From positions 1-44,321 of the forward strand of contig PKTQ01000384.1 in the NCBI GenBank assembly GCA_002869085.1: DNA of 44,321 nt, read 5' to 3'. This document shows, in pieces, positions 2,039-32,233 of the stretch. The first letter of the stretch is position 1. Each line of letters opens with the position of its first letter. This DNA comes from Hyphomicrobiales bacterium (GTDB lineage Bacteria > Pseudomonadota > Alphaproteobacteria > Rhizobiales > BM303). A program made the translations under genes and the position numbers. The notes beneath the pieces were generated by a model that searched no databases, had not been told where the DNA came from, and worked only from the letters and a program-made list of their open reading frames with translations.

Positions 2039-2456
2039 ATAATATTTTTCACTGAATTTCTATTCTGTTGTTATCTTCGATTTTCGTGATATTCTGAGAC
2101 ACAAATGTCGATTTTGGGCGGGAAGCAGACTTTTGCTGCACCGGACATGAATGTCCGTTCTCACAATGGTCTCGGACGAAAAATTTAAGGGTTGAATTTG
2201 TGCTGTTGACCCGAGGCAGATAATTGGCATAGTTCCTTGAACTAGGTGTTTGATGACCAACTTAAAAATGTCCCTCATCGGACTTACATCTTACATTATT
2301 TGTGGCGGTCGAACCAAGCATGCAACGTTGTACATCAGGTCTGTGTGATTTCATTCTGATGTAGTCAGCGGAAATTTTTTCATGCCAATGGAAAACCACA
2401 CCTCAAATCCCTCCAAGTCATATTGGTAGATCAGCCCGATATCAACTTTGGAGGAC

Positions 2457-3236
2457 ATGATGATTAAGAAAACACTTGGTTTCCTATTTGGCGTAGCAGC
2501 CATCATTATAGCAAGTACTGTTTTGGCGAACACCTTTTATCCCCAACGCCTGGAAGCCATCGGCGCCTATCTAACAGCTAAAACTTTTGGTTGGGACGAG
2601 CAAACCTGTGGTTTTTACCCCGTGCAATGCCTGCAGGGTAAATATCGGATGCTTTCCGATACAGAGCGACGCCTGAGCGAAGCCATTGAGATGCTGAAGA
2701 CGGAAGAAGCGCGTGCCAAAAACCTGGTCTCCGAACAGAACTTGCTCAAGCAAAAAAACATGAGCTATCTGAAAAGTGGCCGTGAAGTCTATCTTGCAAA
2801 CGCTTCCAATCCGGATCACTCAGTTGAATTTGCAGGCCGGACATATCCGAACTTAAACAAGCTTAAATTGCAGCTAAAACTGCTTTTCTCGGAAAAGGTC
2901 CAGTTGGCCGAAAGCGCCAAAAAAGCTGCCCAGCTGGAAAAGAGGCTACGCAAGAAGTGGGAAGCATTAATGATCAGGCAGGCAGGTGTGCGTGCCGAAC
3001 GACAGATGATCCCGGGTAAGGTTGCTCTGGTCCGTGGCAATTCAACACTGGTGAATATAAGTGAAAACATCTCCATGATCGATGATCTGGTGGATAAGAG
3101 CGAAGATGGCTTGAAAGGGGCAGAAACTCTTATCGGCACCACTAAGGATCTGATGAAGTCGGAAAGCAGAATTGGAGATGACGACGCGGATCATGATGAC
3201 TTCGAAGCCTTTCTCACCAACCCAAAAGTGCAGTAA
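2457..3236 (+). CDS. N-terminally membrane-anchored coiled-coil protein (PspA/IM30-like appearance, low confidence)
   Basis: GGAGG 4 nt upstream of ATG 2457. TM segment LGFLFGVAAIIIASTVLA, then long heptad-like helical sequence and an acidic C-terminus. Confidence 0.7.
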   Translation: MMIKKTLGFLFGVAAIIIASTVLANTFYPQRLEAIGAYLTAKTFGWDEQTCGFYPVQCLQGKYRMLSDTERRLSEAIEMLKTEEARAKNLVSEQNLLKQKNMSYLKSGREVYLANASNPDHSVEFAGRTYPNLNKLKLQLKLLFSEKVQLAESAKKAAQLEKRLRKKWEALMIRQAGVRAERQMIPGKVALVRGNSTLVNISENISMIDDLVDKSEDGLKGAETLIGTTKDLMKSESRIGDDDADHDDFEAFLTNPKVQ

Positions 3237-3295: not shown

Positions 3296-4243
3296 ATGAT
3301 GCTGGATGAAATATATTGGTACGGAATTGGTTGGGCAAAGTTAAAAGGGAGTCTCGTAAAAACGGCAGTGGCACATGGTTCAGATTTTCTCAACCAGCTG
3401 GCAGCATACGAAGATCCTGATAAAGCAGCGCGTTCATTCTTGGAGAAATATCGTCAAGAAATTCAGAAACTATCTCGTCAATTTAAACATAACAATATGT
3501 GGTCAATTGCGCTGGGTTTGCTCTTCGATGATGATCGTTTCGTGAAAGGAGTGTTGAGAGATCTGAAAGCCCTGTCCGGAGAGAAATTAAAACGTGATGG
3601 CTCGAAACTCGAGGCCGAACAGGCATTTGGTAGATTCGTCACATACTATCTGCTCGACTCCATTCAGGCACTCGATCCAAAAGCTGCCTACCAGCACAAA
3701 AAATGGCGCCGAATAAGAAAACTAAGCAAGGAAATCGAGAGAGAGGGATTTCCATTTGGCCCTGGTGAACGCTGTGCGGACGAGCACATTTCGCAAGTGC
3801 TTGATCGAATTCAAATGGATTTTCCGGATGATCACAACCTTCCTAAAACATTTGAAGGTATCAAAAAATATTTTTACCGCTATTGCGACGATTGTGGGTA
3901 TCCCTCAGCGCAGGAAGTGGGATGGCTCATGTCAGATACAGGATACGCTCCAGACGCTACTGAGTGTGTCGACCACCTCTACCGTCGCGAACCTGAACTC
4001 GCTGAAGCGGTAATGGTGAAATGCGGCTATGTCCTCCCGAACACTGGGTCAATGACAGCCGAGAATTACCGCGAAGAAAACAAACTATCCTTGGGAGAAT
4101 TCAGAAAGCGGATCAAGCAGGCCTTGGAGAAATTACGGGAGTGCGTACTACGGGCCATCTTCGTAAAAAACCGCAATGTTTTGAATTTCGAAGACTACGC
4201 CAAGGCAATTGCCCGCGAGAATGGAGATCGCCATGACAGATGA
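3296..4243 (+). CDS. hypothetical soluble protein (315 aa)
   Basis: GGAG 5-8 nt upstream of ATGATG at 3296. Co-directional with its neighbours. No motif recognised. Confidence 0.65.
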   Translation: MMLDEIYWYGIGWAKLKGSLVKTAVAHGSDFLNQLAAYEDPDKAARSFLEKYRQEIQKLSRQFKHNNMWSIALGLLFDDDRFVKGVLRDLKALSGEKLKRDGSKLEAEQAFGRFVTYYLLDSIQALDPKAAYQHKKWRRIRKLSKEIEREGFPFGPGERCADEHISQVLDRIQMDFPDDHNLPKTFEGIKKYFYRYCDDCGYPSAQEVGWLMSDTGYAPDATECVDHLYRREPELAEAVMVKCGYVLPNTGSMTAENYREENKLSLGEFRKRIKQALEKLRECVLRAIFVKNRNVLNFEDYAKAIARENGDRHDR

Positions 4244-4784
4244 TAAGAAAAGCTTGTCACTTTTAGCTATGATCCTGGCCGATCAGCCTGAAACATCAGA
4301 TGTAGCCGACATTTCCCAGGCTCGTATGTATGAAGCCTTGACCAGCGGTCCTACCTTCACTGAACAGGAGAAACAGAGTCTTTGGCTTTCCCCTACGATC
4401 CGGAATACCTATTTTGGACTCAAGAGGAAAATACTTGCCGAACAGCAAGCGCGGATCCAAGAGGCCGGTGTCAATATGCACGCGTTTCCCAAGGCTGCGG
4501 CGGCTGAAGCAAAGGAATTCATTGTAGAAGCTGACGACTTCAAGGTGATTGTTATCCAGTCTAAGGTGGACAAAAACATCTGGTACCTCACGCTCCAGCT
4601 AAAAAAGAAAATGAGAGGTGCAATTTACCCAATGTCTACCATCTCCCTCGTTGATAGTGAAGGGCTTGAATGGCTTTCAGGACGCCCTGATAAACATGGT
4701 GAAACCAATCAGATCTGGCCACACAAGGGGATTTCTCCCGATCAACTGATTGGCAAAGTATCTCTCGAGATCAATGCGTTATGA
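4233..4784 (+). CDS. hypothetical protein (183 aa)
   Basis: ATG 4233 preceded by GGAG. Overlaps the stop of the upstream gene by 11 nt, which suggests translational coupling. Confidence 0.6.
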   Translation: MTDDKKSLSLLAMILADQPETSDVADISQARMYEALTSGPTFTEQEKQSLWLSPTIRNTYFGLKRKILAEQQARIQEAGVNMHAFPKAAAAEAKEFIVEADDFKVIVIQSKVDKNIWYLTLQLKKKMRGAIYPMSTISLVDSEGLEWLSGRPDKHGETNQIWPHKGISPDQLIGKVSLEINAL

Positions 4785-4806: not shown

Positions 4807-7542
4807 ATGATCAATATTAGCGAGCGGATGCACGCAAACAGAGATTTGATTGGTAGAGTTGAATATGAGCTAAGAGAGGGATTGAAAACGTTAGTGGAAT
4901 TTCGCTTGCGAAGGAAATTCAAAGAGAACTGGAAAAAGGAAGTTGATGATATTCTAGGAGGGAATAGTGCAAATAAAAATACGGTCTATGTATCTCGCGA
5001 TCCAGTTGGGGACCTTCAATGGGATTGCACGGCTCTACTAAAGATAATCCAAAAGAGATCCTGGGAAATATTTCCAAACAAGCTGCAAAATGAAGCAAGA
5101 GACCTAGCGTATAATTTACGAAAATATCGCAATGATGAACCCGGCCATGAAAAGACTAGGCGTATTAATTATTCAAATGCAAGGGTCAACAAAACCATCA
5201 ACATGACAATCGAGCTGCTGGAGTTGGTCAAGCAGGCCTCTATAGCCTTCAGCTGCCAGTACGGTGGCATTGACGCGGAAAAGGCAATCAAAGAAATCGA
5301 GAGGCATGTCGAAGAACTCAAAAACAGGCGGAGAAACAATGCTGAAAACACAGGAGACAGCGCCAACGCTACTCCAAAAGATACCGAGCACCAAAAAGAA
5401 GGTTTGAATTCACCAGAAGAAAGTCCAAATCGGAAAGAGTATCGGAGCTCTGCCTTTATTACGAAACAACATGAAAAAGGAGCTGTTCTCTTTACGATAG
5501 TAGAAGCCGGAACACCTTTTTATGGCTCAATCTGGTGCGAAGTAATTGAGCGCGACGAACAGGTTAATCATAACGTCCGAGCGTTTGGTCCAGATGAGAA
5601 TTTGGAACAGATCGTGGTCGACGCTAGATGGAAGGAAACTAGGGGGAGGCACACCGGATTTGACAAGTTTGTTTATGCGTATTTTGATCCACGCAGTTTT
5701 ACCGGGAGAAGTTGTGGGCTCGCTCTTGCCATCGCCGACAAAAGGGCGCGCTATGATCCCGAAAACCTTCTGGATATCCCTGTCCTTGTCGCCACCGGAG
5801 ACTTGCCGATCGACGGTCATGGAAAGGTGATCGGTATAAATCACTTCAAAGAAAAGCTGAGCCTTGTTGATGATACCCTGAAAGTGCCGGCTCAGTTCAT
5901 TTTTCCGAAGGCGAATCGACCGCGGCAGGGCACTGAAGAATTCAGCATACTTGAACGCATCAAGGCTAAAGGTATCATTTGCCGTCCTGTTGAGAATATC
6001 AATAATCTGTCAGATCTTTGGACAGCACCTGAAGACAGAGCCAAGACAGACGACAAGACTAAAACCCACAAGCCTCATGAGATCTCAACATCTGAGTCTT
6101 TGGACGTGAAGGCCCATCCATTTTCCAAATATGCCTGGGTGGGTATGGCTGCTGGAGTTCTCGGTATTGGGGTCGTCACGCTACTGGCAGATCGCTGGAT
6201 GTCATTTCTCCCCGATCCCGTCGCTGAAGCAGCGCGAACGGAAAGACTGACAGCAATTGAAAACGCCTACAGCCATGTGACTGCTATTTCTGCGAAATCT
6301 TGCAATGATCTTGTCTCAGCCGTTGATCGACTGACGCTGGAGGATAGCGGTTACCTCAATCAGAGCCACAAGAAGGCGATAAGCCAAAGCGATGACTGTC
6401 GAGCCAGGCTGAAGCAAAGCCAGTCTGTTCTGGCGAGCTTGATGGCAAGCGTTAAACAGGCCGGCACTCAGCCCAATCCGGATAGCGATATCAAAGTGGT
6501 TGAAATTTTAGCTAAGCTTGATTTTGTCGATCCTGCGTCTCTCACTGCCGGACAGGGCAATGCCTATAAATACGCCCAGGGCGCAAAAGGCCGTGTCGAA
6601 GAGGCACGTACGCTCATCAAGGCACTGGGGCCATTGCAGACCGTTGATGAACGGTCCACAGCGAAAGCCTGCCAGGACGTACTCGCTGCCAATCAGAAAC
6701 TGGACCAATATGGCCAGCAGTATCTTAAGCACTCCGGATACGATATGGAATCTTCTGTGCGCCTCTGTAACCAGATGGCGATCGCCAGTGCCGAGCGCAT
6801 CGCCAGGCTTGAATCAGCCATTGCAGCGGCAAAGAAGAGACCAACTCTTGAGAGCTATTCACAAATGATCGAGGTATATGACGGGCTCAAGATCTATGAT
6901 AGGTCGCACCTTGAAACCGGCGTGACTCAATTTGTTGAGACAGGCAAATTGAGCCACAGGCAATACAGGATGCAGCTGGAAGGCCTGAACAAGACCCTGA
7001 GGGCCTGGAGGTCCAAACCGGCGTCAGCCACGCTGTTTGAGGTGATCTCATCATTGGACAGGCTCCTTGCTTCCGAACGGGAAGGTATCGCTTCAGGAAA
7101 CCTGCAAACAGTCAAGGATGCAATGGCCGTTCGTACGAGGGCCAACAGGAAAGCTAACGCAATCCAAAAGGGTGAAATTTCCAGTCTGCGCTGGTTTGTT
7201 CGTGATATTGATGGTGCTGACATTCCAAACGGCTTAGCCGGCTCCTTAAGACGCTTGTTGCATCAGTCAGGCCTGAAACTGGCACAGAACATTGACGACA
7301 GCGATATTGCCATAACCGTATCTTTATCTATGCGCTCGGCGCTCACGAATGTCGGTCAGGTCAATGTTCATGGCGCCATCGTGAATCTAAATATGCAAGC
7401 GGCCTGGACCGTCGACAACGAAGTTCTGTTCATAGAGAACGGCTCAGCCAATGGCACAAGCACGCTGAGTGCTGAGAGAGCGAGAGACCAAGCCTACCAG
7501 AAAGTGATGGAGAAGGTTGTGTCGGTTCTATCAGAGAGGTGA
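4807..7542 (+). CDS. multidomain protein: N-terminal HEPN-like domain + Lon (S16)-like protease domain + one TM helix + ~440-aa helical C-terminal region
   Basis: HEPN Rx4-6H motif YRNDEPGH (nt 5128-5148) preceded by LLKIIQKRSWEIF (Swt1-like HEPN look). Lon-like Ser/Lys dyad context FTGRSCGLALAIA (nt 5704-5718) ... VLVATGDLPIDGHGKVIGINHFKEKL (Lys ~5848-5856) ... FIFPKAN. TM helix AWVGMAAGVLGIGVVTLLA (~6133-6190). Confidence 0.75.
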   Translation: MINISERMHANRDLIGRVEYELREGLKTLVEFRLRRKFKENWKKEVDDILGGNSANKNTVYVSRDPVGDLQWDCTALLKIIQKRSWEIFPNKLQNEARDLAYNLRKYRNDEPGHEKTRRINYSNARVNKTINMTIELLELVKQASIAFSCQYGGIDAEKAIKEIERHVEELKNRRRNNAENTGDSANATPKDTEHQKEGLNSPEESPNRKEYRSSAFITKQHEKGAVLFTIVEAGTPFYGSIWCEVIERDEQVNHNVRAFGPDENLEQIVVDARWKETRGRHTGFDKFVYAYFDPRSFTGRSCGLALAIADKRARYDPENLLDIPVLVATGDLPIDGHGKVIGINHFKEKLSLVDDTLKVPAQFIFPKANRPRQGTEEFSILERIKAKGIICRPVENINNLSDLWTAPEDRAKTDDKTKTHKPHEISTSESLDVKAHPFSKYAWVGMAAGVLGIGVVTLLADRWMSFLPDPVAEAARTERLTAIENAYSHVTAISAKSCNDLVSAVDRLTLEDSGYLNQSHKKAISQSDDCRARLKQSQSVLASLMASVKQAGTQPNPDSDIKVVEILAKLDFVDPASLTAGQGNAYKYAQGAKGRVEEARTLIKALGPLQTVDERSTAKACQDVLAANQKLDQYGQQYLKHSGYDMESSVRLCNQMAIASAERIARLESAIAAAKKRPTLESYSQMIEVYDGLKIYDRSHLETGVTQFVETGKLSHRQYRMQLEGLNKTLRAWRSKPASATLFEVISSLDRLLASEREGIASGNLQTVKDAMAVRTRANRKANAIQKGEISSLRWFVRDIDGADIPNGLAGSLRRLLHQSGLKLAQNIDDSDIAITVSLSMRSALTNVGQVNVHGAIVNLNMQAAWTVDNEVLFIENGSANGTSTLSAERARDQAYQKVMEKVVSVLSER

Positions 7543-7685: not shown

Positions 7686-8756
7686 ATGAATCCGATTATT
7701 ACTAAAATTAAGAATGCCTACCTTATAATAATATATATTATTTCATTTACTTCAATATCAATTACTATTATGATATTCACCACGTTATCTTCAAGGGCGC
7801 AAAACATCAACAATTCCATATACGATATTATCTCACAGCTTCAGCGCGGCAATGTTAAAACCGTAGCGGTACTTAACTTCGTTGACGTAAGGGGGCGTGT
7901 TAGAGCCCTTGGTAAATACCTTGCTGAGGAACTGTCGATTACGCTGGTCAAAAGTCAAGATACAATCAAAGTCATAGACCGCGGGAATCTCAACCGTTTA
8001 TTGGATGAGCTGAATCTGTCTGAGTCCGGCCTGATAAATCCTGAGAACGCTAAAAAACTAAGTAACATATCTGGGATAGATGCCCTCATTTTTGGCAGCA
8101 TAGTTCCTACGGGCGATAGCTATCGGTTGCAGTTGAGAGGGATCTCCGTTGGTACGGCTGAAGTGATTGCGGCTGCGGGCTTGGATATAAGGGGTGCGGA
8201 ACACCTGAAAGCCTTGTGGAGAGATATTGTATCCTTGAATAATAGTTACGCCATCAAATCCAAAGATGGGTCAATGGCCGCTGAATCAGGCATATCCAGG
8301 AATGATCATGTTAAATATAATGAAAGGTTGCAAGTTAATTTGATAAACCTATCGAGGTCACAGAAAATTGTTTACGGCCAGAAGTTTTACTCTTTGAACT
8401 CAACATTTTCTGTTAAGAACTTGGAGAATAAACCCGTTGAGATCATATTCGTGAATAAATATTACTTAATGTATCAGGATCTATCAGGTCTAACATGCTC
8501 TCCCACCAGCGACTGGGGACGAATTGAGACCAACCTGGGAAAAGCGAGTTCCGCATCTGCTTTCGGCTACGGCAAAGGACAGATGATTGGTCCTGGTGAG
8601 GAATTTATGGTCGTTGTGAAGAGTTTAAATTGCCCAGCCCCAGCAAAACAGGGTAAGGGTAATTTTTCTATAAAAATGCTTTCGAAGAACGAATCAAATC
8701 GAACATTTCAGGAAAGCTTTAACTTCAGAGATATTGAGTTAACAGGAACTCACTAA
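7686..8756 (+). CDS. membrane-anchored protein with CsgG/FlgO/LpoB-like domain
   Basis: N-terminal TM YLIIIYIISFTSISITIMIFTTL, then VAVLNFVDVRG..LGKYLAEELSITLV..VIDRGNLNRLLDELNLSESGL..GIDALIFGSIV, which is the pattern of the CsgG/FlgO/LpoB fold. The C-terminal ~170 aa are unassigned. Confidence 0.7.
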   Translation: MNPIITKIKNAYLIIIYIISFTSISITIMIFTTLSSRAQNINNSIYDIISQLQRGNVKTVAVLNFVDVRGRVRALGKYLAEELSITLVKSQDTIKVIDRGNLNRLLDELNLSESGLINPENAKKLSNISGIDALIFGSIVPTGDSYRLQLRGISVGTAEVIAAAGLDIRGAEHLKALWRDIVSLNNSYAIKSKDGSMAAESGISRNDHVKYNERLQVNLINLSRSQKIVYGQKFYSLNSTFSVKNLENKPVEIIFVNKYYLMYQDLSGLTCSPTSDWGRIETNLGKASSASAFGYGKGQMIGPGEEFMVVVKSLNCPAPAKQGKGNFSIKMLSKNESNRTFQESFNFRDIELTGTH

Positions 8757-9103
8757 AGGCAAATTGGCTGGTTAGTCAGATCTCGATGAGTTCGGGTATT
8801 AGCGCGATTTAAGGGAAGCTTGACTTTATCGAAACTGTCAATCGGCATTGAATGTTGACCCCTGGATCGCTGCCGCGGGTAAAAGCATGGCCGCCTCCTT
8901 CGCTCGTGGCGTTATGAGGGATCACAATGCCGTTAAAGCCGCAATCACAGAGCCATAGTCGAACGGACAGACCTAAGGTCAGGTAAACAGGTTGAAAGTG
9001 GTCAAGCGTCAAATGTATGGGTGCTCTGAAGCCTGGAATCTCCGCCATTTCTGATTAGAGTTTTTCGCTGTCATTTCCCTGGCTGGGATAAGGAGCGGAA
9101 GCG

Positions 9104-9250
9104 ATGAAAGCATCGAGGTTCACGGACGCACAGAAGGCGTTCATCATCAAACAGGGCGAGGACGGCACGCCAGTGGCAGAGATTTGCCGCAAGGCGGGGA
9201 TCAGTCAGGCGACCTATTTCAACTGGAAGAAGAAATATGCCGGCCTGCTT
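9104..9250 (+). pseudogene. IS3-family transposase OrfA, N-terminal remnant
   Basis: MKASRFTDAQKAFIIKQGEDGTPVAEICRKAGISQATYFNWKKKYAGL is a typical IS3/IS407-type OrfA HTH. Homology stops after ~49 aa and no OrfB follows. Confidence 0.7.
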
Positions 9251-9346
9251 CGCCTGAGCTACGCAATGGCTCCGCTCAGCAGGCCTTGACGGAAACCAAA
9301 TCAACGGAAATAAACGTGAACGGATTTTACTAGCAAATGGCCCGGA

Positions 9347-9637
9347 TCAGGGGGCTGGGTCAAGTTGCATGTCCATTTTATGGGCAAAATCATTCCGCAG
9401 TTTTCCCAAAGCCTTCAAAGATTCCTGAAGTTCTTCATGCAACCCCATTGCAACTGCGAGAGTAATTTTCTGGTGGTAACTCAAATTCATTGAACTCAAA
9501 TGTCTTGAGTACGGAATAAGCTGATCGAGCAATTCATCCAAAACGCTTTCAACAAAAATATGAGAGCGAATGACAACACCTAACTCATCCTCACCCATGA
9601 GTAATTTATAAAATTTGTCTGCCTCTGGATCGTTCAT
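9347..9637 (-). CDS. small MtlR-like HEPN domain protein (96 aa)
   Basis: YHQKITLAVAMGLHEELQESLKALGKLRNDFAH has the HEPN RNxxxH motif in the MtlR-like context. AGAGGTGG lies upstream of ATG 9637. It sits 42 nt downstream of the helicase gene. Confidence 0.7.
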   Translation of the reverse strand: MNDPEADKFYKLLMGEDELGVVIRSHIFVESVLDELLDQLIPYSRHLSSMNLSYHQKITLAVAMGLHEELQESLKALGKLRNDFAHKMDMQLDPAP

Positions 9638-9679
9638 TGCCACCTCTATTTCACACACACATGAATATATAATAGGGTA

Positions 9680-12217
9680 TCAAGCCTTTCGCTGTGCCAT
9701 TTCACGTAGGCTCGTCCCCGCTAGACGATAGAATAATTTGTCTATGTCCCATGAACTGTCGTCGCAAAGTTCACGTGTTCTTGGGGAACGTTCCAAAGGA
9801 ATGTGGCGACGAAGATCACTAACTAAGGCAAACAATTGATTTTGAAGCTCAACAAGACTGCTAGGCAAACAAATCTTCATAGCGTTTGACGGGTTACCGC
9901 GCGCTTCGATCGATCCATCCGGACCTACATAGAGAAGACCAAGGCAAGTGCTGTCCGGATAGTTATCGGTGATCCAGCTCAGGTGATCGTGCCCTTGTGA
10001 TATATCCTTCTTCCAGTAGGTAGCTGGGTTATCCTTATCGGTTTTGAGTTCGAACGCTATACATTGCGATGATGGCTCATCCACCCACAGGACATCTGGT
10101 CCGGTTCCAACGTCATTGTCCGGGCGAGTAGCCACGAATCCGAGAATTTCTCCTAGGACCCTTGTCGCTTCTTCCATTCGTCGTGTTGAAGCTCCACTCA
10201 AATCCATGAGCTGTGTGCGCCAGCGCCCAAACTCGCGATCAAAGTGTTCATTTAACGTCAATCCAACCAACCAATCGACATTGCGCGCGAACTGTGAGGC
10301 GTCGTCTCCAAGAGTAGCTGTATTTCGAGGACCAGGTCTCCGTGGAAGAGCAATATTGTTACCCAGCCGGTTCATGGCCCGACGATAGGCCAAGTGAGCA
10401 CTGTCTATATCTTCCTCAGCTTCCAAGGCAGCGCCAACCCAAACAGATTGCCAGCCAGAGAGTACTGGATCTACATGTCCGGTAGCCTCCGCAGCAGAAT
10501 CCAGAATGTTTCTTGCTTCCGTAACATCTCCGTTCCACATTGCGGCTGCATAAGAAGCCTCGGCAAGTGCGGCAGCGACCATTTGCTCTTCAGCCTCTTC
10601 CGCACGCTGAACTTGATCCTGGTCGAGATCGCCCCGTTGGATATTGTCGCCGTAAAAGTCAAGCCAGGAAGGCTCACGCGATAAAACTGCATTAATCGTT
10701 TGCAGAACAGCATCACCCTCCTTAATTTTCATACCTTCCTGAACAGTACGTCCCAATAGAATTTGCCGCTGTAACAACTGCGGAAGAAGGGCGACATTTC
10801 GGTCATTGTTAAACCACGAATTGAGTTCGGTTCCAACTATAAGAAAGGCGCCGTAGTCGTTTCTCCCTCGATTGATTCGACCGAACAACTGGACAAGTCG
10901 ATTGGCGATGCGCGTGGAATGCAGATTTAGCATTCGGAGGAACTCCCACTGATAGCGCTCTATCAGGGAAGCGCCTGATGGTAGTCCATCCATCACCATA
11001 ACGCGGCAAGTGTCGTGCGGCAGGTCGATACCGTCGACCCGGGAAACAAGAACAAATGCGCCATCAGCGGATCGTCGAAAAGCTTCAAGCTCTACAGAGA
11101 AATTCTGTGCGGCAGGGGGCGCCGCCAAATCTTCCCAGTTTCTTGCGGCTGTATAGCTCGGTACTGCAATAAGCACCTTCTGTTTGCCGCAAATCCGTGA
11201 GACAAGGTCGGATGAAACTCCTCCAACAATATTGCGGCCAAACAGGATCAAGCGCTCACCGTTTCCGGCGTCGTTATCCGGTTCAATTACGATATCGGGT
11301 AACCTGCCGAAAGCTCGCACAATATCTGTCTTCGACTTCAGTGTCGCAGATAGATAGACGCGACGGATCGGCCGTTCGAAGACATCGAGTGCGAGAGAAG
11401 GAAGAAACGGTGGCGCTAGCTCGAACATGCCACGACTAAAGAGTAACGCACAACAATCAAGTTTGTCCCGTAAGTGTGCGAAAGGAAATTTAAGATTATC
11501 ATCATCATGGACTCCATGACTGTGCAATAGCGTCAGAAGTCGATCACGACGTTCTGCAAGCCCCCCCGGAGCAGCCATCACGATCGAGGGGTGTTCGCCC
11601 GTCAGACTATCCTCGAAGCGTCCCTCAATACGAAGGTCTCGAAAATGGGGACGAAAAAGTTCAGCGACTTCGTTGAGCAAATCCGGATGTTCCCGCCCGG
11701 AAACAGTCAGAGTGAGAGAGCCACGGAGGATTGCTTCTGCGACGTGCGCATCATCAAAAATGACGGCACCGGGAAAGAACCTGCGCCTGATAGCGCTCAG
11801 CCCGTTGAAGAGGGCGTGATACGTGGTGATACAGAAGCCGCGCCCACTTTCGAAAAGATCGTTGCTGAAATTGGACCGTACTCTAACAGTATGGTCCAAA
11901 CCTATCCGCAAAGCTTCCTGAGACGTCTGATTAACGAGGTCAATAGTTGCACAGACGTAAATGACGTTTTCAATACCTTCATTCACAAGGCTTTGTGCCG
12001 TCAGTAGACCAACGAGGGTCTTGCCAGCACCTGTATTCAACGAGACCAGAACGTCGTTCCTGTCGCGCGCGTCATTCCATTGAACAAGTGCCTCCGCTTG
12101 GCCGCGCCATAGATCGTTTGGCGTACCTGGTAAATTGGGCAGGCGCTCAAATATCTTAATGGGGTCAGTAGGCTGTGCTGCCGTCAACGGCGTACCCAGT
12201 TTCGAAAAATCCATCAC
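9680..12217 (-). CDS. SF2 (DinG/XPD-like) helicase fused to C-terminal PD-(D/E)xK nuclease-like domain (845 aa)
   Basis: LNTGAGKT (motif I), VIFDDAHV (motif II), YLSATL (III), SRVDGIDLPHDTCRVMVMDGLP (DinG/Rad3-type C-terminal signature), QLFGRINRG (VI). C-terminal GPDVLWVD ... IAFELKTDK. Confidence 0.85.
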   Translation of the reverse strand: MMDFSKLGTPLTAAQPTDPIKIFERLPNLPGTPNDLWRGQAEALVQWNDARDRNDVLVSLNTGAGKTLVGLLTAQSLVNEGIENVIYVCATIDLVNQTSQEALRIGLDHTVRVRSNFSNDLFESGRGFCITTYHALFNGLSAIRRRFFPGAVIFDDAHVAEAILRGSLTLTVSGREHPDLLNEVAELFRPHFRDLRIEGRFEDSLTGEHPSIVMAAPGGLAERRDRLLTLLHSHGVHDDDNLKFPFAHLRDKLDCCALLFSRGMFELAPPFLPSLALDVFERPIRRVYLSATLKSKTDIVRAFGRLPDIVIEPDNDAGNGERLILFGRNIVGGVSSDLVSRICGKQKVLIAVPSYTAARNWEDLAAPPAAQNFSVELEAFRRSADGAFVLVSRVDGIDLPHDTCRVMVMDGLPSGASLIERYQWEFLRMLNLHSTRIANRLVQLFGRINRGRNDYGAFLIVGTELNSWFNNDRNVALLPQLLQRQILLGRTVQEGMKIKEGDAVLQTINAVLSREPSWLDFYGDNIQRGDLDQDQVQRAEEAEEQMVAAALAEASYAAAMWNGDVTEARNILDSAAEATGHVDPVLSGWQSVWVGAALEAEEDIDSAHLAYRRAMNRLGNNIALPRRPGPRNTATLGDDASQFARNVDWLVGLTLNEHFDREFGRWRTQLMDLSGASTRRMEEATRVLGEILGFVATRPDNDVGTGPDVLWVDEPSSQCIAFELKTDKDNPATYWKKDISQGHDHLSWITDNYPDSTCLGLLYVGPDGSIEARGNPSNAMKICLPSSLVELQNQLFALVSDLRRHIPLERSPRTRELCDDSSWDIDKLFYRLAGTSLREMAQRKA

Positions 12218-12262
12218 TTAACCAATCCCATAAGTTGCTCCTTATCCACGGGGCGAGAGCCC

Positions 12263-14272
12263 TCAATCTTCTGCTGTCACTCCTTCTTGATCGCTCTCCG
12301 GCTCAGGTTCCCGGCGATCGTCGCCATCAGAGACTACGCCTGAAAGAAACTTATGATACTTGTCTTGCAAATGCTTCAGAGCTGTATCGTCGTCCACTTG
12401 GTGTTCCAGCTTCTCTTGGAAGAACTGAAGACGCGCCTTGTTTTCCTCTATGATCTGGGCCCAAGTCTTGATCCCGACGGAGATATTGTCCTTAGAAGAA
12501 ATGACACCACGGTCATCCATGCGGTACGCAGCATACTGATCTATATCGTCTGATATTGCCCAAAACGTCCATTTGACACCGCTCACCGTGTGGAACCGCT
12601 CATCATTTGCAACGCTGATCGCATATTTCTCAACTTGTGTGATTTCTTCATGGCCAATTTTTATCTTGGGCCGTTTCAGCTCAACGATCAGATGTTCGAG
12701 TTCATCAGCTCTGTGCCGACGAAGTGCTCTAGACAGCATGAGGTCAACAATCCCACGCTGCTGGCTGATATGTCTGACCGGCTTGTCGATAACAATGTCA
12801 TCTCCAAGAATCTTCCGGTGTTTCTGCAATACTGCGGTGAGCCCCTTATCGCTGACAGACAGGTTGTATTCCTCACCGAACAGCCAAGTGTTGTCCTCGA
12901 TGATCTTGTGAAGTTGCGAACGCTCTTTGAGCCGCGCTTTCATATCTGGGTCAAATAGGACCTGTTCCAATCCGGTGAGAAACTTTAGTCGGTCCGCGAC
13001 GATCTTGGCGGCACTGATGATTGACGAGAGGGATGCTTCCCGCAGCAATCCGGCGAGCTCTTCCTGTTTCCGCTTTGGCAGCCCCAGAACCTCGCTCATG
13101 ATTATTTGGAGGTCTTCCGGACTCTTTTCGATTGCTGTACGGAGCATCCGAAGGTCGAACTCTTTCTTCTTCGGCGGGGCACTCTCGAAGTCCGGCATGT
13201 AATCGCTTGCCGTTACGGCCAGGATATCGAATACCTTGCGCTCAGCATTCTCCAGTGACGACTTGGCCTCGCCTACATACGGGTAGACATTCTGCGCCTT
13301 CCATGTCTCGACAACCGTTCGAGCACGCTTAGCAGCGCGCTCCCGGAAATAAGCCTTGATAGTTTGTTGCGCTTCTTCGATGCAACCGTTGAGAAAAGGA
13401 TTCATTTCGGCGAGGTCGAGCTGTGCCTCACCATGCAGTTTTGTGATAAATGGTGATTTCAGATAGGCCGAAAAGTGAAACTCGCCGATGTGAAACCGCG
13501 TCGTTACTTTTGAAAGCGGAAAGCCCTGTTCTGTACACAGGTAGAGACCACGAGTCGTCACGTTCTGCCATTCAATGATCTCAAGCTCCACTGGATGCAC
13601 TGCGCTCTCTTCATCTATGTCGTTCAGGTGCGCAATGTGGGTATTGGCTATTGCTATAGCGGGATCTACCTGCCTGCCCTCATACAGTATCGAAATATCC
13701 CGATAGTCTTTCAGGTAAAGTGCAAAAATCTCGGATAATTCCTGCACGGCATTTTCGGGATCAAGGGACCGGTATTCGTGGTGCAGTTCCGATATCTCAA
13801 TCTCTACTCCGGTGCTTCCAGCTTCGACTGCTTCCTCGTCCGAGATACGAACTTCGCGAATATTGTCTTCCAGCATGGTGATATCGTAGGCGCGCAACTC
13901 ACCTGTGTTCGTACGATATGCGACACGCCAATCGGCGACTCGGCCAAGGGCAAACACTTTGAACCGGCCACGGCCTTCATAACCGTGCAGCATACGCTTC
14001 TTCGTTTTAGTTTGACCACCAGGTTTTTTCCACGAGCCACCGAGGCGCGTGAACAAATGCGGAGCATCGTCGTAGGGAATGCCGTCTCCGTTATCACGGA
14101 CAATGATTTTGCTCAATCCCAGTTCGCCGTAATTGAGCTGCACATCAACACGAGCTGCGTCAGCATCCAGTCCATTCCATATTAGTTCGGCGATAGCTTG
14201 GACCGGCTTCGCCTTCGACTGCCGCGCTAGGAAGTCTGGCTGGACCTCAACCGTATATCTGTGCTCAGTCAT
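12263..14272 (-). CDS. GHKL (MORC/paraMORC-like) ATPase fused to C-terminal Shedu/DUF4263-like PD-(D/E)xK nuclease domain (669 aa)
   Basis: Bergerat motifs ELIWNGLDADA (N box), VRDNGDGI (G1), HGYEGRGRF (G2). C-terminal LHKIIEDNTWLFGEEY ... GIVDLML ... LIVELKRPKIKIG ... QVEKY. Confidence 0.85.
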   Translation of the reverse strand: MTEHRYTVEVQPDFLARQSKAKPVQAIAELIWNGLDADAARVDVQLNYGELGLSKIIVRDNGDGIPYDDAPHLFTRLGGSWKKPGGQTKTKKRMLHGYEGRGRFKVFALGRVADWRVAYRTNTGELRAYDITMLEDNIREVRISDEEAVEAGSTGVEIEISELHHEYRSLDPENAVQELSEIFALYLKDYRDISILYEGRQVDPAIAIANTHIAHLNDIDEESAVHPVELEIIEWQNVTTRGLYLCTEQGFPLSKVTTRFHIGEFHFSAYLKSPFITKLHGEAQLDLAEMNPFLNGCIEEAQQTIKAYFRERAAKRARTVVETWKAQNVYPYVGEAKSSLENAERKVFDILAVTASDYMPDFESAPPKKKEFDLRMLRTAIEKSPEDLQIIMSEVLGLPKRKQEELAGLLREASLSSIISAAKIVADRLKFLTGLEQVLFDPDMKARLKERSQLHKIIEDNTWLFGEEYNLSVSDKGLTAVLQKHRKILGDDIVIDKPVRHISQQRGIVDLMLSRALRRHRADELEHLIVELKRPKIKIGHEEITQVEKYAISVANDERFHTVSGVKWTFWAISDDIDQYAAYRMDDRGVISSKDNISVGIKTWAQIIEENKARLQFFQEKLEHQVDDDTALKHLQDKYHKFLSGVVSDGDDRREPEPESDQEGVTAED

Positions 14273-16463: not shown

Positions 16464-17912
16464 TTGAATGAATTATTTTTGCGGATTGGATACATACATT
16501 CGCTAGATCAACTTACCTCGATTTGTTTCAATATCCACCAACATGTCAGATACCGTCCTAAACGGCACCCTAAGATAAAATTACCTCCTGAGAGCCCCTC
16601 ACAAGCTCGCACAGCGGCCTTTCCTAACTTTCGGAGTTGTGGGTGCCAGTGTCAGCGCCAGGTTTGGGGCGGGGAACAACCCTTGCGGCTTTGGCGTGGT
16701 GCTCGACGCCGGCACCTCTATATCATCGGCCAGACCATGACGGGTAAATCAACCCTGATGCGGTCACTTATGGCTCAAGACATTTTGGCTGGACATGGCT
16801 GTGCTCTCATTGACCCTCATGGGGATCTGGCGCTTGAGGTGATGGAAGCTGTGCCGTCCAACCACATTCGGGACGTGATTGTGCTTGATCCGTCTGACCT
16901 CAAATATCCGGTGGGGTTTAATCCGCTTTACCGGGTGCCAAAAGATGAACGTGATGCGGTAGCGGAAAATCTGACAGCTACCTTTGCTCATTTGTGGCGT
17001 GATAGTTGGGGGCCGCGCCTAGAATACATCCTCCTCAATACCATTTCGGCTCTCTTGGATGCACCCGACAATTTGCGGCCGACCATGGTCTCAATTCCAC
17101 TCATGTTAGTGAATGAAGAATACCGGGAGAGGGTTTTGCGCCACGTGCAAAATCCTCAAGTGCGGGAATATTTCTACACCGAGTTCTCACGGTGGAAGGG
17201 CCGGCACCTGGATGACCGGCTAGGGCCGATTCAAAACAAGATCTGTAAGTTTCTCACCAACACAGCGGTGCGAAATATCTTTGGGCAGTGGAAGCCCAGT
17301 ATCGATCTTGATGAAATCGTGGCAAGAAAGCAGATTCTGATTGTGAGATTATCTAAAGGTCTTGTGGGAGAGCTGACCGCCAACATGGTTGGCTCTTTTG
17401 TCGCTACTGGCTTTCAACATGCCGCTATGCGCCAGGCCAAGCTACCAGAAGGGGAGAGGCCTGATTTTGATCTTCATATTGATGAGTTCCACAATTTCAC
17501 CACTGACGCTTTTGCGGACATTCTCTCTGAAGCTCGCAAGTATGGCCTCACCCTTACCATCGGTCATCAGTACATTGATCAAATGGCTGAGGAGGTGGCC
17601 GACGCAGTCTTTGGTAATGTCGGTAGCATCGTGTCCTTCCGGGTATCAGCTCGTGATGCTGAGCGTTTGGCCAAGGAGGTTGGCACTTATCACCCTCGGA
17701 TTTTTGGAGATCTTGGGGTGGGGGAAGTGGTGGCCAAACTCCTTAAGCAGAACAACACCTCATATTCGATGCGCGGCCGCACTGAACCAGATGCCGTTAA
17801 AATCTATGGTCGCAGCGACTCCATACGTCGCCTGTCGCGAGATCGCTATGGCCGTAAACGGTCAGTGGTTAAAAAGAATATTAGTAGGTGGATTGGACGG
17901 CAGAAGATGTAG
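16464..17912 (+). CDS. TraD/VirD4-like (type IV coupling protein-like) P-loop ATPase; N-terminus uncertain
   Basis: YIIGQTMTGKST (Walker A), FDLHIDEFHNF (Walker B), ARKYGLTLTIGHQYIDQM (TraD/TraG C-terminal HQ motif). The first ~85 codons (TTG start, Cys/Arg-rich) look non-native. The true start, or a frameshift, probably lies near 16690-16730. Confidence 0.75.
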   Translation: MNELFLRIGYIHSLDQLTSICFNIHQHVRYRPKRHPKIKLPPESPSQARTAAFPNFRSCGCQCQRQVWGGEQPLRLWRGARRRHLYIIGQTMTGKSTLMRSLMAQDILAGHGCALIDPHGDLALEVMEAVPSNHIRDVIVLDPSDLKYPVGFNPLYRVPKDERDAVAENLTATFAHLWRDSWGPRLEYILLNTISALLDAPDNLRPTMVSIPLMLVNEEYRERVLRHVQNPQVREYFYTEFSRWKGRHLDDRLGPIQNKICKFLTNTAVRNIFGQWKPSIDLDEIVARKQILIVRLSKGLVGELTANMVGSFVATGFQHAAMRQAKLPEGERPDFDLHIDEFHNFTTDAFADILSEARKYGLTLTIGHQYIDQMAEEVADAVFGNVGSIVSFRVSARDAERLAKEVGTYHPRIFGDLGVGEVVAKLLKQNNTSYSMRGRTEPDAVKIYGRSDSIRRLSRDRYGRKRSVVKKNISRWIGRQKM

Positions 17913-20535: not shown

Positions 20536-21516
20536 TTATGCTGCAGCTGATTGGTGCTGCAAGCGGCGTTTTCGGAATGTCTGTTTCTTGATCTCCTCTC
20601 TCATTTTCAGGATCTTCACGCCTCGGCCATGGTAGACATCGGCGGGCGTCAGATTGCCCAGGCTCTCATGGTAACGATAGTTGTTGTAGTACTCGACGAA
20701 GGCACCGATCTGCCGTTCCAGATCGCCAGGTAGGTAGTAGTTTTCCAAGAGAACCCGGTTCTTCATGGTCTGGTGCCAACGCTCGATCTTGCCCTGGGTC
20801 TGCGGGTGATGCGGCGCACCGCGAACATGATCCATGCCCTTGCTATCGAGGTAGTCGGCCAGGTCGGCGGCGACGTAGGACGAACCATTGTCGCTGAGCA
20901 ATCGTGGCTTTTGGACGACCGTGGCTTGATCACACCCTGATGCTTCCAACGCCAGTTCCAGCGTGTCGGTCACATCTACGGCCTTCATCGTCGTGCAAAG
21001 CTTCCAGGCGATGATGTAGCGGCTGTAGTCGTCGAGGATCGTAGACAGATAGAACCACCCCCAGCCGATGACCTTGAGATAGGTGAAGTCGGTCTGCCAC
21101 AGCTCGTTCGGTCTGGTTGTCTTGTCGCGGAACTCATCGGCTGCGCAGATCACCACATGGGCCGGTGCCGTGATGAGGTCTTCCGCCTTGAGAAGGCGAT
21201 ACGCTGAAGATTCAGAGATAAAATACCGCTCCTCATCGGTGTATTTAACCGCGAGTTCGCGCGGTGTCAGGTCTTCGTGGTCCAGCGCAAACTCGATAAA
21301 GGCTTTACGGGTGTCGTCTGGGATACGGTTCCAGACTGACCGGGGCCGTGGCGACCGATCTGTCAGGCCATCAATCCCTCCTTCAACCCAGCGGGCATAC
21401 CAGTCATAAAAAGTGCTGCTGGGGATGCCGAGCATCTTCAAGGTCTGCCTGGTCGACAGATGTGACCCCTCGACTGTGCGGATGATCTCCAGCTTTTCGG
21501 ATGCAGGATACCTCAT
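20536..21516 (-). CDS. IS3-family transposase OrfB, DDE/rve integrase core (326 aa)
   Basis: WQTDFTYLKV...LSDNGSSYVA...HHPQTQGKIERWHQTMK. ATGA overlap with the OrfA stop. Confidence 0.85.
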   Translation of the reverse strand: MRYPASEKLEIIRTVEGSHLSTRQTLKMLGIPSSTFYDWYARWVEGGIDGLTDRSPRPRSVWNRIPDDTRKAFIEFALDHEDLTPRELAVKYTDEERYFISESSAYRLLKAEDLITAPAHVVICAADEFRDKTTRPNELWQTDFTYLKVIGWGWFYLSTILDDYSRYIIAWKLCTTMKAVDVTDTLELALEASGCDQATVVQKPRLLSDNGSSYVAADLADYLDSKGMDHVRGAPHHPQTQGKIERWHQTMKNRVLLENYYLPGDLERQIGAFVEYYNNYRYHESLGNLTPADVYHGRGVKILKMREEIKKQTFRKRRLQHQSAAA

Positions 21517-25781: not shown

Positions 25782-27020
25782 TCAAGTCTTTTGCCACGAC
25801 AAAATGTCAGAAAGTTGCTTACCAATCTCTTTATTTGCTGTTTGCAGAGTGCCAGATGCCAAATGAGCATATCTTTCAGTGGTGACTGATTTTTTATGCC
25901 CCATGAGCTTGCCAATCACTGGCAAGCTCATCCCTGAAGCTACAGCTATTGAAGCAAAACTATGCCGCAGATCGTGGATGCGCACATCTTCCAGGCCACA
26001 CAATTTACGAATTCGGTTCCACGGTTTTTGTAGATTGATCAGGTTTTTCCCCTCCTTGCCACCAACGATAACAAAAGGATTATTTTTCAATTTGGGTAAA
26101 TTCCTCAAAACCTCGACCGCAGGAGGAGAGAGAAAGATACTTTTTTTCCCTGTTTTTGAATCTGGTAAATTCAGGACTTCTTTTTCTAGATCCACATGTT
26201 CCCATTTTAAATTTAGAATCTCGCCAAGCCGTGCTCCGGTAAAAATGAGCAACCGGATAGCTGCAATTGCGTAGGGGTTTTCCTGGTCAGTATCTTTAAG
26301 TCGATTCAGGATTTCTCCCAATCTCTCAAATTCCTCAGTTGAGAGATATCGTTCACATTTATTTTCTTTAAAACGAGTGACTTGATGAGCGGGATTTGAT
26401 CCATCCGGACGCAGGTTCCACCGCTCAGCTAGATTGAACATCTTAGACACCAACGCCAGACAACGATTGGCTACACCTGGTCCACCAGTAACAACAGCCC
26501 CTCCTCGATACTCTCTTTTCCCATCAGGGTTTTTTGCAGCCGTTTTACCATTTCTGATATCGTTCTTAAATCGATCAATATCTTCACGTGTTACATCCTG
26601 AACTGGGATATTTCCAATCAGAGGAAGGACATGGTTCTGGATGTTTTTTCTATCTGTGTTGTAACTTGATGGCTTTTTATGAATCTCGGCGTAATCTTTC
26701 AAATACCGATCACATAAATCACTTATCAAAACCTGGTCGCGTTTAGCTTCACGAAGAGCCACCAAATCTTTTCCAGCATAGATATCAGCGAGCAACCTCT
26801 GAGCTTGTTTTCTGGCGTTAACTACTGTCCACGGACTTCCATGTTCTCCAATGGTGAACCATTTCTGCCTTCCTTTGATACGAGCTTTGAGAACATACTT
26901 TTTCGCATTGGTCTGTCTTCTAACACCAAATCCCTTCACCTCAGAATCCCAGACGATCTGGTTTGGTTGGAGTCTATCGACAATTGACTTAGTGATTTTT
27001 GTTGTTTTTCCTTTTGTCAT
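25782..27020 (-). CDS. int: tyrosine site-specific integrase, P4/CP4-57-like with N-terminal arm-binding (DUF4102-like) domain
   Basis: VWDSEVKGFGVRRQTNAKKYVLKARIKGRQKWFTIG (N-terminal domain). TGARLGEIL, HDLRHSFAS and TTERYAHL (R..HxxR..Y catalytic signature). 153 nt from the tRNA-derived direct repeat. Confidence 0.9.
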   Translation of the reverse strand: MTKGKTTKITKSIVDRLQPNQIVWDSEVKGFGVRRQTNAKKYVLKARIKGRQKWFTIGEHGSPWTVVNARKQAQRLLADIYAGKDLVALREAKRDQVLISDLCDRYLKDYAEIHKKPSSYNTDRKNIQNHVLPLIGNIPVQDVTREDIDRFKNDIRNGKTAAKNPDGKREYRGGAVVTGGPGVANRCLALVSKMFNLAERWNLRPDGSNPAHQVTRFKENKCERYLSTEEFERLGEILNRLKDTDQENPYAIAAIRLLIFTGARLGEILNLKWEHVDLEKEVLNLPDSKTGKKSIFLSPPAVEVLRNLPKLKNNPFVIVGGKEGKNLINLQKPWNRIRKLCGLEDVRIHDLRHSFASIAVASGMSLPVIGKLMGHKKSVTTERYAHLASGTLQTANKEIGKQLSDILSWQKT

Positions 27021-27173: not shown

Positions 27174-27220
27174 GACTGAAAATCCGCGTGTCGGTGGTTC
27201 GATTCCGCCCCTGGGCACCA
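27174..27220 (+). repeat. 47-nt exact direct repeat of the tRNA-Phe 3' part (= nt 53-99); att site bounding island A
   Basis: GACTGAAAATCCGCGTGTCGGTGGTTCGATTCCGCCCCTGGGCACCA is identical at 53-99 and 27174-27220. The tRNA 5' half is absent here. Confidence 0.9.
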
Positions 27221-32227: not shown

Positions 32228-32233
32228 GGACCA

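Follow-up and report, generated by a model that had tools for sequence, protein, structure and literature searches.

Lon-type proteases and sigma factors are known to be coupled in type III CRISPR immunity, where the Lon protease CalpL is switched on by oligomerisation driven by cA4 and cuts CalpT, an anti-sigma factor, thereby freeing CalpS, a sigma factor of the extracytoplasmic function (ECF) type (PMC11417357; PMC11229360). Sigma factors are also controlled by proteolysis in envelope cascades such as sigmaE with DegS/RseP-RseA, the FecIR-type systems and DdvS/DdvA, and work on DdvS/DdvA indicates that sigma/anti-sigma pairs of this kind can control defence islands (PMC11506125). A third point of comparison is the Swt1-like family of HEPN domains, whose known bacterial members have AAA+ ATPases, helicases or restriction components as fusion partners, and for which the 2013 census of HEPN architectures gives no Lon or transmembrane fusion (PMC3710099). 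Here, we describe a locus in a 44,321-nucleotide (nt) stretch of DNA from a Hyphomicrobiales bacterium (contig PKTQ01000384.1 of assembly GCA_002869085.1; the whole stretch is hereafter called the window) in which one gene, gene D, encodes a Swt1-like HEPN domain, a Lon-like protease domain, a transmembrane helix and a long repeat region in a single polypeptide. Five same-strand genes, A to E, lie together in the window, and we consider the relevant unit to be this A-B-C-D-E operon with a B-C-D core, rather than gene D alone as a stand-alone effector. By analogy, the operon may be an envelope-coupled counterpart of CalpL/CalpT/CalpS to which a HEPN RNase has been added, a model to which we give an even chance of being correct overall.

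Architecture and family of gene D

Gene D and its parts are as follows, with residues given in amino acids (aa).

4807-7542, + strand: gene D, 911 aa, HEPN domain, Lon-like domain, transmembrane helix, repeats and terminal module in an intact open reading frame (ORF), with a Shine-Dalgarno sequence before the ATG
4870-5226, + strand: Swt1-like HEPN domain, aa ~22-140, matched by Pfam PF18731, with the Rx5H motif R108-H114 at nt 5128-5148
5329-5484, + strand: polar low-complexity linker, aa 175-226, read from the sequence, between the Pfam HEPN match and the start of the Lon-like domain
5485-6033, + strand: Lon (S16)-type proteolytic domain, aa 227-409, from a family hidden Markov model (HMM), a profile run against the PDB, and AlphaFold2 with Foldseek
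5710-5712 and 5854-5856, + strand: predicted catalytic Ser302 and Lys350, respectively
6133-6189, + strand: single transmembrane helix, aa 443-461, hydropathy 2.03 over 19 aa
6283-7143, + strand: predicted periplasmic array of ~62-aa repeats, ~4.5 copies, aa 493-779, conserved in the long family
7183-7530, + strand: C-terminal module of ~115 aa, aa 793-908, from a local HMM

The translation of 4807-7542 runs through 911 codons with zero internal stops, and the complementary strand is stop-rich. A GAGGA Shine-Dalgarno sequence lies 7 nt 5' of the ATG at 4807, the stop of the upstream gene lies 22 nt before that ATG, and an identical 911-aa product is also called on a separate 13-kb JGI metagenome contig. 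Relatives become visible only by exhaustive HMMER search, which yielded 121 clusters from 1.84 billion representatives; word-indexed searches were near empty, returning at first the query itself only and later seven matches. Local HMM iteration finds a central domain of ~182 aa (aa 227-409) common to 116 of the 121 clusters, while the full architecture of HEPN, Lon-like domain, transmembrane helix and repeats is present in at least 24 clusters at 17-21% identity to gene D. Six residues are invariant in these 24 long homologues (R108, H114, S302, K350, C499 and C531). The family thus seen comprises more than 100 clusters at 50% identity and is wholly unannotated. Full-length relatives are encoded in a Pannonibacter metagenome-assembled genome (locus L004) and on two metagenome contigs (L012 and L013), and one motif pattern has two matches only in 185,579 reference genomes. 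Among viral contigs, we found no short-form relatives and one long-family-like locus, L023 (IMG/VR), which resembles the locus L005 described below; there is no evidence that gene D is a phage gene.

An earlier note, made from the letters of this DNA without database searches, had proposed just such an unusual single-polypeptide architecture. The motifs it quoted are all found in gene D where it placed them, and the architecture is real, as one intact ORF encodes it and it recurs in 24 clusters. That recurrence of the same layout, together with its presence at independent loci, all at 17-25% identity, also rules out the possibility that two genes were joined by a sequencing error. The note had further taken the combination to be undescribed, which is consistent with our full-text literature search: no description of the gene D architecture or of the operon was found there, an absence that is not proof of absence elsewhere. 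The note did not consider the operon, which shifts the functional reading of gene D from a stand-alone effector to the probable protease of a sigma/putative anti-sigma module. We hold the domain-level statements on gene D that follow with high confidence.

The Lon-like and HEPN domains

Within the central domain, GRSCGLALAIADK occupies residues 300-312, VATGD residues 328-332, FKEKL residues 347-351 and FPKAN residues 366-370. Ser302 is present in all 115 of the aligned members, as are T330 and G331, and Lys350 in 114 of 115; R274, E277, D311, R315, G339, P367 and N370 are each conserved in at least 90%. When a 51-sequence profile (A2) is compared with the PDB, the matches are almost exclusively Lon protease domains, led by LonB of A. 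fulgidus (1z0e, E=7.5e-6) and including LonA (1e-3) and CalpL (1.6e-3), with E-values ranging to 5e-3. In this comparison, K350 aligns with the catalytic Lys of GG..(K/Q)K, which reads GGV.QK in A. fulgidus Lon and lies within its TG...G.V..[IV]GG..K motif. An AlphaFold2 model of aa 215-430 has a mean pLDDT of 67, with 80-95 in the core, and Foldseek places it with Lon and RadA in the PDB, as every one of its top 50 matches is a protease domain of one or the other (E from 2.5e-8, probability 1.0, TM-scores of about 0.55-0.64). A PDB sequence search with the full-length protein gave no match, nor did one with the Lon-like domain alone, and scans with Pfam, PADLOC and NCBIfam detected no AAA+ or P-loop family anywhere in gene D. 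Judged from profile and model, the central domain belongs to the Lon (S16) proteolytic type, from which it has diverged; its Ser-Lys dyad is intact, it has no AAA+ module, and it is predicted to be active. The likeness to the serine and lysine loops of Lon that had been read from the sequence is therefore borne out by the conservation of S302 and K350 and by the profile match, and the domain models as a Lon protease fold and not as a non-protease fold.

N-terminal to this domain, the RNDEPGH motif corresponds to residues 108-114 of gene D. Pfam HEPN_Swt1 (PF18731) matches aa 22-110 with 35.1 bits against a gathering cut-off of 27.5 (E=1.9e-8), and it also matches 15 of the 24 long homologues. 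Alignments of 24 and 19 full-length homologues show R108 and H114 to be invariant and N109 nearly so; with a score above the Pfam cut-off and both residues fixed, the Swt1-like HEPN claim of the earlier note stands, and its Arg/His and Ser/Lys positions are all invariant or nearly so among homologues. A profile of the N-terminal region compared with the PDB gives weak matches to CRISPR-associated HEPN proteins around RN..AH (E about 0.12), and because these are weak, the assignment rests on the Pfam match and motif conservation. By these criteria, the domain is a bona fide Swt1-like member and a predicted active RNase. The linker that follows it (aa 175-226) is a candidate flexible or cleavable tether.

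The membrane anchor and C-terminal region

The transmembrane segment, AWVGMAAGVLGIGVVTLLA, corresponds to residues 443-461, and in about 105 of the 116 members of the family a helix likewise follows, 20-50 aa past the Lon-like domain. The single strong helix noticed earlier is thus confirmed, and its recurrence identifies a cytoplasmic Lon-like domain followed by one transmembrane helix as the conserved core of the family. Beyond the helix, the repeats follow the motif A..L[T]..D..R ... SD.R[IL]..L. Self-alignment of the repeat profile gives offsets of 62, 124 and 185 residues (probabilities of 99.5, 98.8 and 84.9%), and the family HMM of the region matches each protein several times in shifted registers. 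The module at the C-terminus is matched by P0003, P0051, P0120, P0037 and P0106 at E-values of 1e-29 to 1e-49 (local HMM) and has no Pfam or PDB match; the same module closes small proteins made up of a transmembrane helix at the N-terminus, the repeats and the module itself (P0003 and P0037). Descriptions of the last ~450 residues as helical or alpha/beta are readings of the sequence. Two candidate relationships for this region were rejected, as hhalign gave probabilities below 1% both for the terminal module against FlgT_N-like, CsgG-like and DUF6844 proteins, which had been considered because it might be LPP20/CsgG-like, and for the repeats against DUF6844 or protein A.

We infer that the C-terminal region faces outside. 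Support for an extracytoplasmic tail, which had been proposed as a putative sensor, is indirect: no signal peptide precedes the cytoplasmic-type domains, there is a single transmembrane helix, the Cys499/Cys531 pair that follows it is invariant in long homologues and would fit a disulfide in an oxidising compartment, and relatives carry tails of sensor type. These tails include FGE-sulfatase (P0002), DUF4384 (P0014) and Sel1-like repeats (L018/L021), all typical of extracytoplasmic sensors. Gene D would thus be a single-pass inner-membrane protein with the HEPN and Lon side in the cytoplasm and the C-terminal 450 residues in the periplasm.

As a separate observation, short-form Lon-like transmembrane proteins (L006, L009 and relatives; P0084, P0113, P0122, P0123, P0124; A3) share a conserved periplasmic C-terminal peptide, [LM][ER]PV[EA][IVM]P, which may dock the co-encoded CsgG/FlgO-like, DUF6844 and FlgT_N-like proteins.

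The operon and B-C-D synteny

The other four genes of the operon are as follows.

2448-3236, + strand: gene A, 262 aa, with an N-terminal transmembrane helix, a Cys pair and a coiled-coil-like body
3296-4243, + strand: gene B, ~300-315 aa, a sigma-70-family (ECF-like) candidate, two genes upstream of D in all B-C-D loci
4209-4784, + strand: gene C, ~180-185 aa, cytoplasmic, between B and D in all B-C-D loci, with its true start probably the ATG at 4233
7686-8756, + strand: gene E, 356 aa, a CsgG/FlgO-like envelope protein with an N-terminal signal or anchor sequence

By BLASTP and tblastn, the order B-C-D is kept in the window and in L004, L012, L013, L014, L016/L017, L006-8, L009-11, L018/19, L020 and L021, at identities of 20-35%, and B and C precede gene D in at least ten independent loci. 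The three frames are tightly linked, being overlapping or near-adjacent. That the synteny has outlasted divergence to 20-35% identity speaks for a functional partnership of B and C with gene D. Three flavours of the locus can be distinguished.

Flavour i: A, (secreted paralogues), B, C and a long D with HEPN (L004, L012, L013 and the window)
Flavour ii: FlgT_N/LPP20-like, DUF6844 and CsgG/FlgO-like genes, B, C and a short D of Lon-like domain, transmembrane helix and short tail (L006, L009 and L014)
Flavour iii: B, C, D with a Sel1-like tail and a DUF4384 protein, flanked by caspase (Peptidase_C14), trypsin, OmpA, DUF4384 and FGE-sulfatase genes (L018, L020 and L021)

From these three flavours, B-C-D emerges as the core, and the HEPN domain and long repeat region of gene D as lineage-specific additions. 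The window locus is a hybrid of flavours i and ii, since it includes the CsgG/FlgO-like gene E. This protein matches Pfam CsgG (E=2.8e-8) and FlgO (E=2.5e-5) and is 29% identical to the CsgG/FlgO-like genes beside B-C-D in L006 and L014. Gene A, which has no Pfam or PADLOC match, is 35% identical to a 344-aa protein of L004 and to its L012 homologue, which occupy the same upstream position in long-form loci; a relationship of gene A to DUF6844 or FlgT_N-like proteins was rejected (hhalign probability below 1%).

Several loci show further features. Between A and B, L004 (6461-8482) and L012 (6308-8453) encode two paralogous secreted proteins, both of which combine a signal peptide with a short coiled coil and a beta-rich domain, PA14-like by eye; the window has no equivalent and has gene E instead. 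Upstream of gene A in the window, a 249-aa ORF (1289-2038, + strand) with no family match follows an AlpA-like HTH_17 gene (547-933), and its guanine-plus-cytosine (GC) content is 31.6%, compared with about 46% for the operon. In L005 (Peteryoungia aggregata, 9800-12511), a 903-aa relative has its Lon-like domain near the N-terminus and no HEPN domain. Homologues of B or C were not detected upstream of the L005/L023 relative, which is a possible exception to the B-C-D rule with one copy on a viral-class contig.

Genes B and C

The C-terminus of gene B reads as a sigma region-4 helix-turn-helix, and three kinds of comparison lead to sigma factors. An AlphaFold2 model built from a 10-sequence multiple sequence alignment is all-alpha (pLDDT 66.7, pTM 0.38), and its top 24 Foldseek matches are all sigma factors, with sigma32 the best (E=0.02, probability 0.85) and sigmaA, sigmaS, SigK and SigH among the others. 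A 17-sequence profile (A11) compared with the PDB has region 4 of the M. tuberculosis ECF factor SigK as its best match (E=0.0062), followed by RpoD region 4 and RpoS, at B positions ~210-293. Finally, when the 17 members are scanned with NCBIfam, the eight families matched most often belong to sigma factors without exception, and include PRK12532 in 7 of 17 (best 4.8e-5), TIGR02989 in 5 (2.6e-4) and TIGR02943 in 4 (4.9e-4). Gene B has no Pfam or PADLOC match, no match to an enzyme family, and none in the PDB with a 4-sequence profile. Taken from sequence and model, it is likely, though not proven, to be a divergent sigma-70-family factor. We also observe conserved Cys/His positions in gene B (RC..EH, FC.DC and two further Cys positions; A10, A11), which suggest a metal or redox site within a sigma-like protein. 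Such a site would be unusual for a sigma factor, since zinc sites are normally on the anti-sigma.

Gene C is conserved in 11 loci at 21-32% identity (A12) and has no PDB, Pfam or PADLOC match. Its N-terminal half is helical with invariant S61-P62 and R65, and its C-terminal half is beta-rich with invariant D149...W155..G158..D161. The linker between the halves is variable except for Ala96-Ala97 (window ~4494-4499), a pair that is invariant in the 11 homologues and looks like a protease recognition or cleavage site. We propose gene C as the putative anti-sigma factor of B and substrate of the gene D protease, on the grounds of its fixed place between sigma-like and protease genes, the invariant linker pair and the precedent of CalpL, CalpT and CalpS.

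Genomic context

The operon lies in an integrative island.

24-27220, no strand: integrative island of ~27 kb, from tRNA-Phe to a 27-nt copy of the tRNA 3' end

A tRNA-Phe gene is found at 24-99 (ARAGORN), and its last 27 nt recur exactly at 27194-27220, where 0 such copies are expected by chance. A tyrosine integrase (25785-27020, - strand) with a Phage_integrase Pfam match adjoins this repeat. The tRNA, the exact repeat and the adjacent integrase together indicate that the operon is cargo of the ~27-kb island, whose GC content is mosaic. Directly downstream of the operon and on the opposite strand is a separate three-gene cluster (9347-14272, - strand), in which an 845-aa helicase is a full-length match to the PADLOC candidate PDC-S28 (1104 bits). 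Elsewhere in the family, TIR and cREC_REC genes lie near the short-form locus L009, and caspase, trypsin and DUF4384 genes flank L018 and L021. Among the window ORFs scanned with Pfam and PADLOC, no cas genes were seen.

Other features of the window are recorded here. The same three-gene cluster contains a 103-aa ORF ending in LRNDFAH that is HEPN-like by eye and has no Pfam or PADLOC match, and a HATPase_c_3 protein of 669 aa, part of which weakly resembles HSDR_N. Between this cluster and the operon lies a decayed insertion sequence of ~240 bp (9018-9258). It aligns at 76-84% identity with an IS3-family transposase gene carried by Hyphomicrobiales plasmids (Nitratireductor, Shinella, Sinorhizobium and Rhizobium), over the left end and the first ~150 nt, a hint that the host is alphaproteobacterial. 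This fragment was considered as a source of the transmembrane helix of gene D and rejected, as the alignment showed no similarity and the IS3 match at 9018-9258 is downstream of the operon. The island also carries a TraG/VirD4-like coupling ATPase (16464-17912; in PADLOC also HerA/mad8-like) and an IS481-like transposase (20536-21516, - strand). Outside the island, at 28797-34537 (+ strand, GC about 60%), are an HlyD-family membrane-fusion protein and two ABC transporters, the first with an N-terminal C39 peptidase domain, a set that resembles a bacteriocin or peptide export system.

Proposed mechanism and alternative explanations

From these data we infer a topology, a substrate, a signal, a role for the HEPN domain and an immune function. 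An envelope disturbance, such as phage attack or envelope damage, would be picked up by the periplasmic repeats, by A and E, or by both, and would drive self-association of gene D. Self-association would switch on the Lon-like domain, as oligomerisation does for CalpL, and the activated domain would cut gene C, plausibly at the invariant Ala-Ala linker, so that gene B is freed to redirect transcription. HEPN RNases, as a superfamily, need a dimeric composite site (PMC3710099), and clustering of gene D in the long lineage would for this reason also juxtapose HEPN domains and add RNA cleavage and growth arrest as a second output. Release of the sigma factor is the likeliest primary output, with HEPN as an accessory arm. 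More broadly, and with rather less than even confidence, B-C-D may represent an unrecognised and widespread class of trans-envelope signalling or immune modules in which a cue from the periplasm or the outer membrane is passed to an ATPase-less Lon-type protease that spans the inner membrane and sets a cryptic sigma factor free by proteolysis. The sensors would be interchangeable (62-aa repeats, Sel1, DUF4384, FGE-sulfatase or CsgG/FlgO-DUF6844 complexes), and in the long forms HEPN would supply a further arm, an RNase tethered to the membrane, for suicide or arrest.

A number of observations weigh against this model. Neither SAVED nor another known sensor domain was found in gene D with Pfam and PADLOC, the repeats (aa 493-779) have no Pfam or PDB match, and the central and C-terminal parts of gene D drew no match from Pfam, NCBIfam or PADLOC. 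Pfam Lon_C and NCBIfam do not match the Lon-like domain at E<=10, even when the isolated domain is used. The lack of a Lon_C match makes it a very divergent Lon relative, and with curated models silent, the assignment rests on the family profile and the predicted fold. For gene B, the window copy reaches E=0.049 against TIGR02937, all of the sigma matches are individually weak and under curated cut-offs, and an hhalign comparison with E. coli RpoE (an approximate sequence, a weak test) gave nothing; the sub-threshold matches and the empty RpoE comparison are the reasons why its sigma identity is called only likely. The Foldseek TM-scores for gene B are about 0.18 with a mediocre model, low values that can be attributed to that model and are expected for flexible multi-domain proteins. 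Gene C has no transmembrane segment and no detectable similarity to any anti-sigma factor, comparison with RsiW and RseA (again approximate sequences, a weak test) gave nothing, and its role is deduced from gene position. HEPN is absent from about 90 of the 116 members of the family, although these keep the Lon-like domain, the transmembrane helix and the B-C partners, which makes the HEPN RNase accessory rather than the core output. Finally, PADLOC-DB 2.0 has no match for D, nor for A, B, C and E, and recognises only the neighbouring helicase (PDC-S28). As PADLOC has no model for A to E, the immune role is one of guilt by association.

The alternatives differ in which of these components they discard. 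If immunity is set aside, the locus could serve housekeeping envelope-stress or cell-surface signalling, with the Lon-like transmembrane protein as site-1 protease for a sigma/anti-sigma pair that controls assembly or repair of an outer-membrane structure (CsgG/FlgO-, FlgT_N- and DUF6844-type proteins) and with HEPN tuning mRNA levels. Short-form loci always have CsgG/FlgO-like, FlgT_N/LPP20-like and DUF6844 genes beside B-C-D, regulated proteolysis of an anti-sigma is established as the standard logic of envelope-stress and cell-surface pathways (see also PMC5411451), and the silence of PADLOC is in keeping with such a role. On the other hand, the window copy is cargo of a mobile tRNA-Phe island of mosaic GC beside a candidate defence gene, relatives lie beside TIR, caspase and trypsin genes, the distribution is patchy (the two motif-pattern matches among 185,579 reference genomes), and HEPN RNase fusions are typical of conflict systems (PMC3710099); we regard a housekeeping role as unlikely. 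If instead B and C are set aside as unrelated genes or expression regulators, gene D could be a stand-alone abortive-infection toxin whose HEPN domain is held inactive at the membrane and is freed or activated by Lon autoproteolysis in the linker (aa 175-226) on a periplasmic trigger. The invariant HEPN catalytic residues of the long family, the long polar linker between HEPN and Lon-like domains and the defence-island context would all suit a toxin. However, because the HEPN-less majority of the family retains B-C, the conserved function cannot be HEPN release, and the deeply diverged B-C-D synteny argues that B and C are functional partners, so that we consider this quite improbable.

The tight linkage of B, C and D, the classic role of Lon in degrading (type II) antitoxins and the weakness of the sigma evidence for B would also accommodate a protease-controlled pair of toxin-antitoxin type, in which B is an effector or toxin, C its labile inhibitor and D the Lon-type protease that degrades C on a signal. 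We think this very improbable, given that three independent methods converge on sigma factors for B with nothing else recurring, and that B matches no enzyme family. A more radical proposal denies the Lon-like domain any catalysis and makes it a scaffold, as in RadA/Sms or ComM, or else takes the ORF for an assembly or frameshift artefact. RadA protease-like domains are indeed among the Foldseek matches and Pfam Lon_C is silent, but Ser302 (115/115) and Lys350 (114/115) are conserved along with the TG and P..N motifs, the same architecture occurs in 24 clusters and independent genomes, and a separate metagenome contig encodes the identical protein. Residue conservation already largely refutes this proposal, to which we give hardly any credence. 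The model that we favour remains release of gene B by proteolysis of gene C across an envelope-sensing switch.

Comparison with known systems

If this model is true, the idea of a Lon-type protease/sigma switch, as in CalpL, would extend from CRISPR second-messenger signalling to envelope sensing, a family of sigma factors too divergent for standard annotation would be uncovered, and there would be a testable entry into how surface detection of phage attack or damage is coupled to transcription and RNA degradation. If only the domain calls hold, the combination of HEPN, Lon and a transmembrane helix would still be a new effector architecture among conflict systems.

With the Swt1-like and Abi2-type HEPN RNases (Anantharaman et al. 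2013), gene D shares HEPN_Swt1 membership, the conserved R-x(4-6)-H and a defence-island context, and it differs from the Swt1-like enzymes in fusing HEPN to a Lon-type protease and a membrane anchor. With canonical Lon (LonA, LonB and LonC) and BrxL, it shares the proteolytic fold and the dyad motifs G.S.G, TG...G.V..[IV]..[FL]..K and P..N, and with LonB also membrane anchoring. Unlike canonical Lon, LonB and BrxL, it has no AAA+ ATPase module, and HEPN and a linker occupy its N-terminal side; it is therefore not an unfoldase-coupled degradation machine. The transmembrane segments of LonB are inserted in the ATPase, whereas the helix of gene D follows the protease domain. Since it lacks an AAA+ module and no curated HMM matches it, including the PADLOC BrxL and Pfam Lon_C models, gene D is not a canonical Lon, LonB or BrxL.

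The envelope sigma cascades resemble the proposed system in that an extracytoplasmic signal leads to release of an alternative sigma factor by regulated proteolysis. In this case, however, the protease rather than the anti-sigma spans the membrane, the putative anti-sigma C is soluble, and the protease is Lon-type and cytoplasm-facing, whereas those of the cascades are PDZ or S2P proteases.

The closest likeness is to CalpL-CalpT-CalpS of type III CRISPR. Both have an ATPase-less Lon-type Ser-Lys domain co-encoded with a sigma or sigma-like factor and a small partner, CalpL is itself a PDB match of the gene D domain profile (E=1.6e-3), and the proposed logic of oligomerisation-activated proteolysis that releases a sigma factor is the same (PMC11417357). 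The differences are that gene D has no SAVED domain and no cyclic nucleotide or CRISPR link, that its sensor side consists of a transmembrane helix, periplasmic repeats and envelope partner proteins, and that a HEPN RNase has been added in its lineage. On the sigma side, B has about 300 aa and has diverged beyond the reach of Pfam; C shows no similarity that could be detected to CalpT or to any other anti-sigma factor; and the gene order here is sigma, partner, protease. By this analogy, gene D would work like CalpL but outside the CalpL family, and the operon is probably a new, envelope-wired version of Lon-protease-controlled sigma release with an RNase added.

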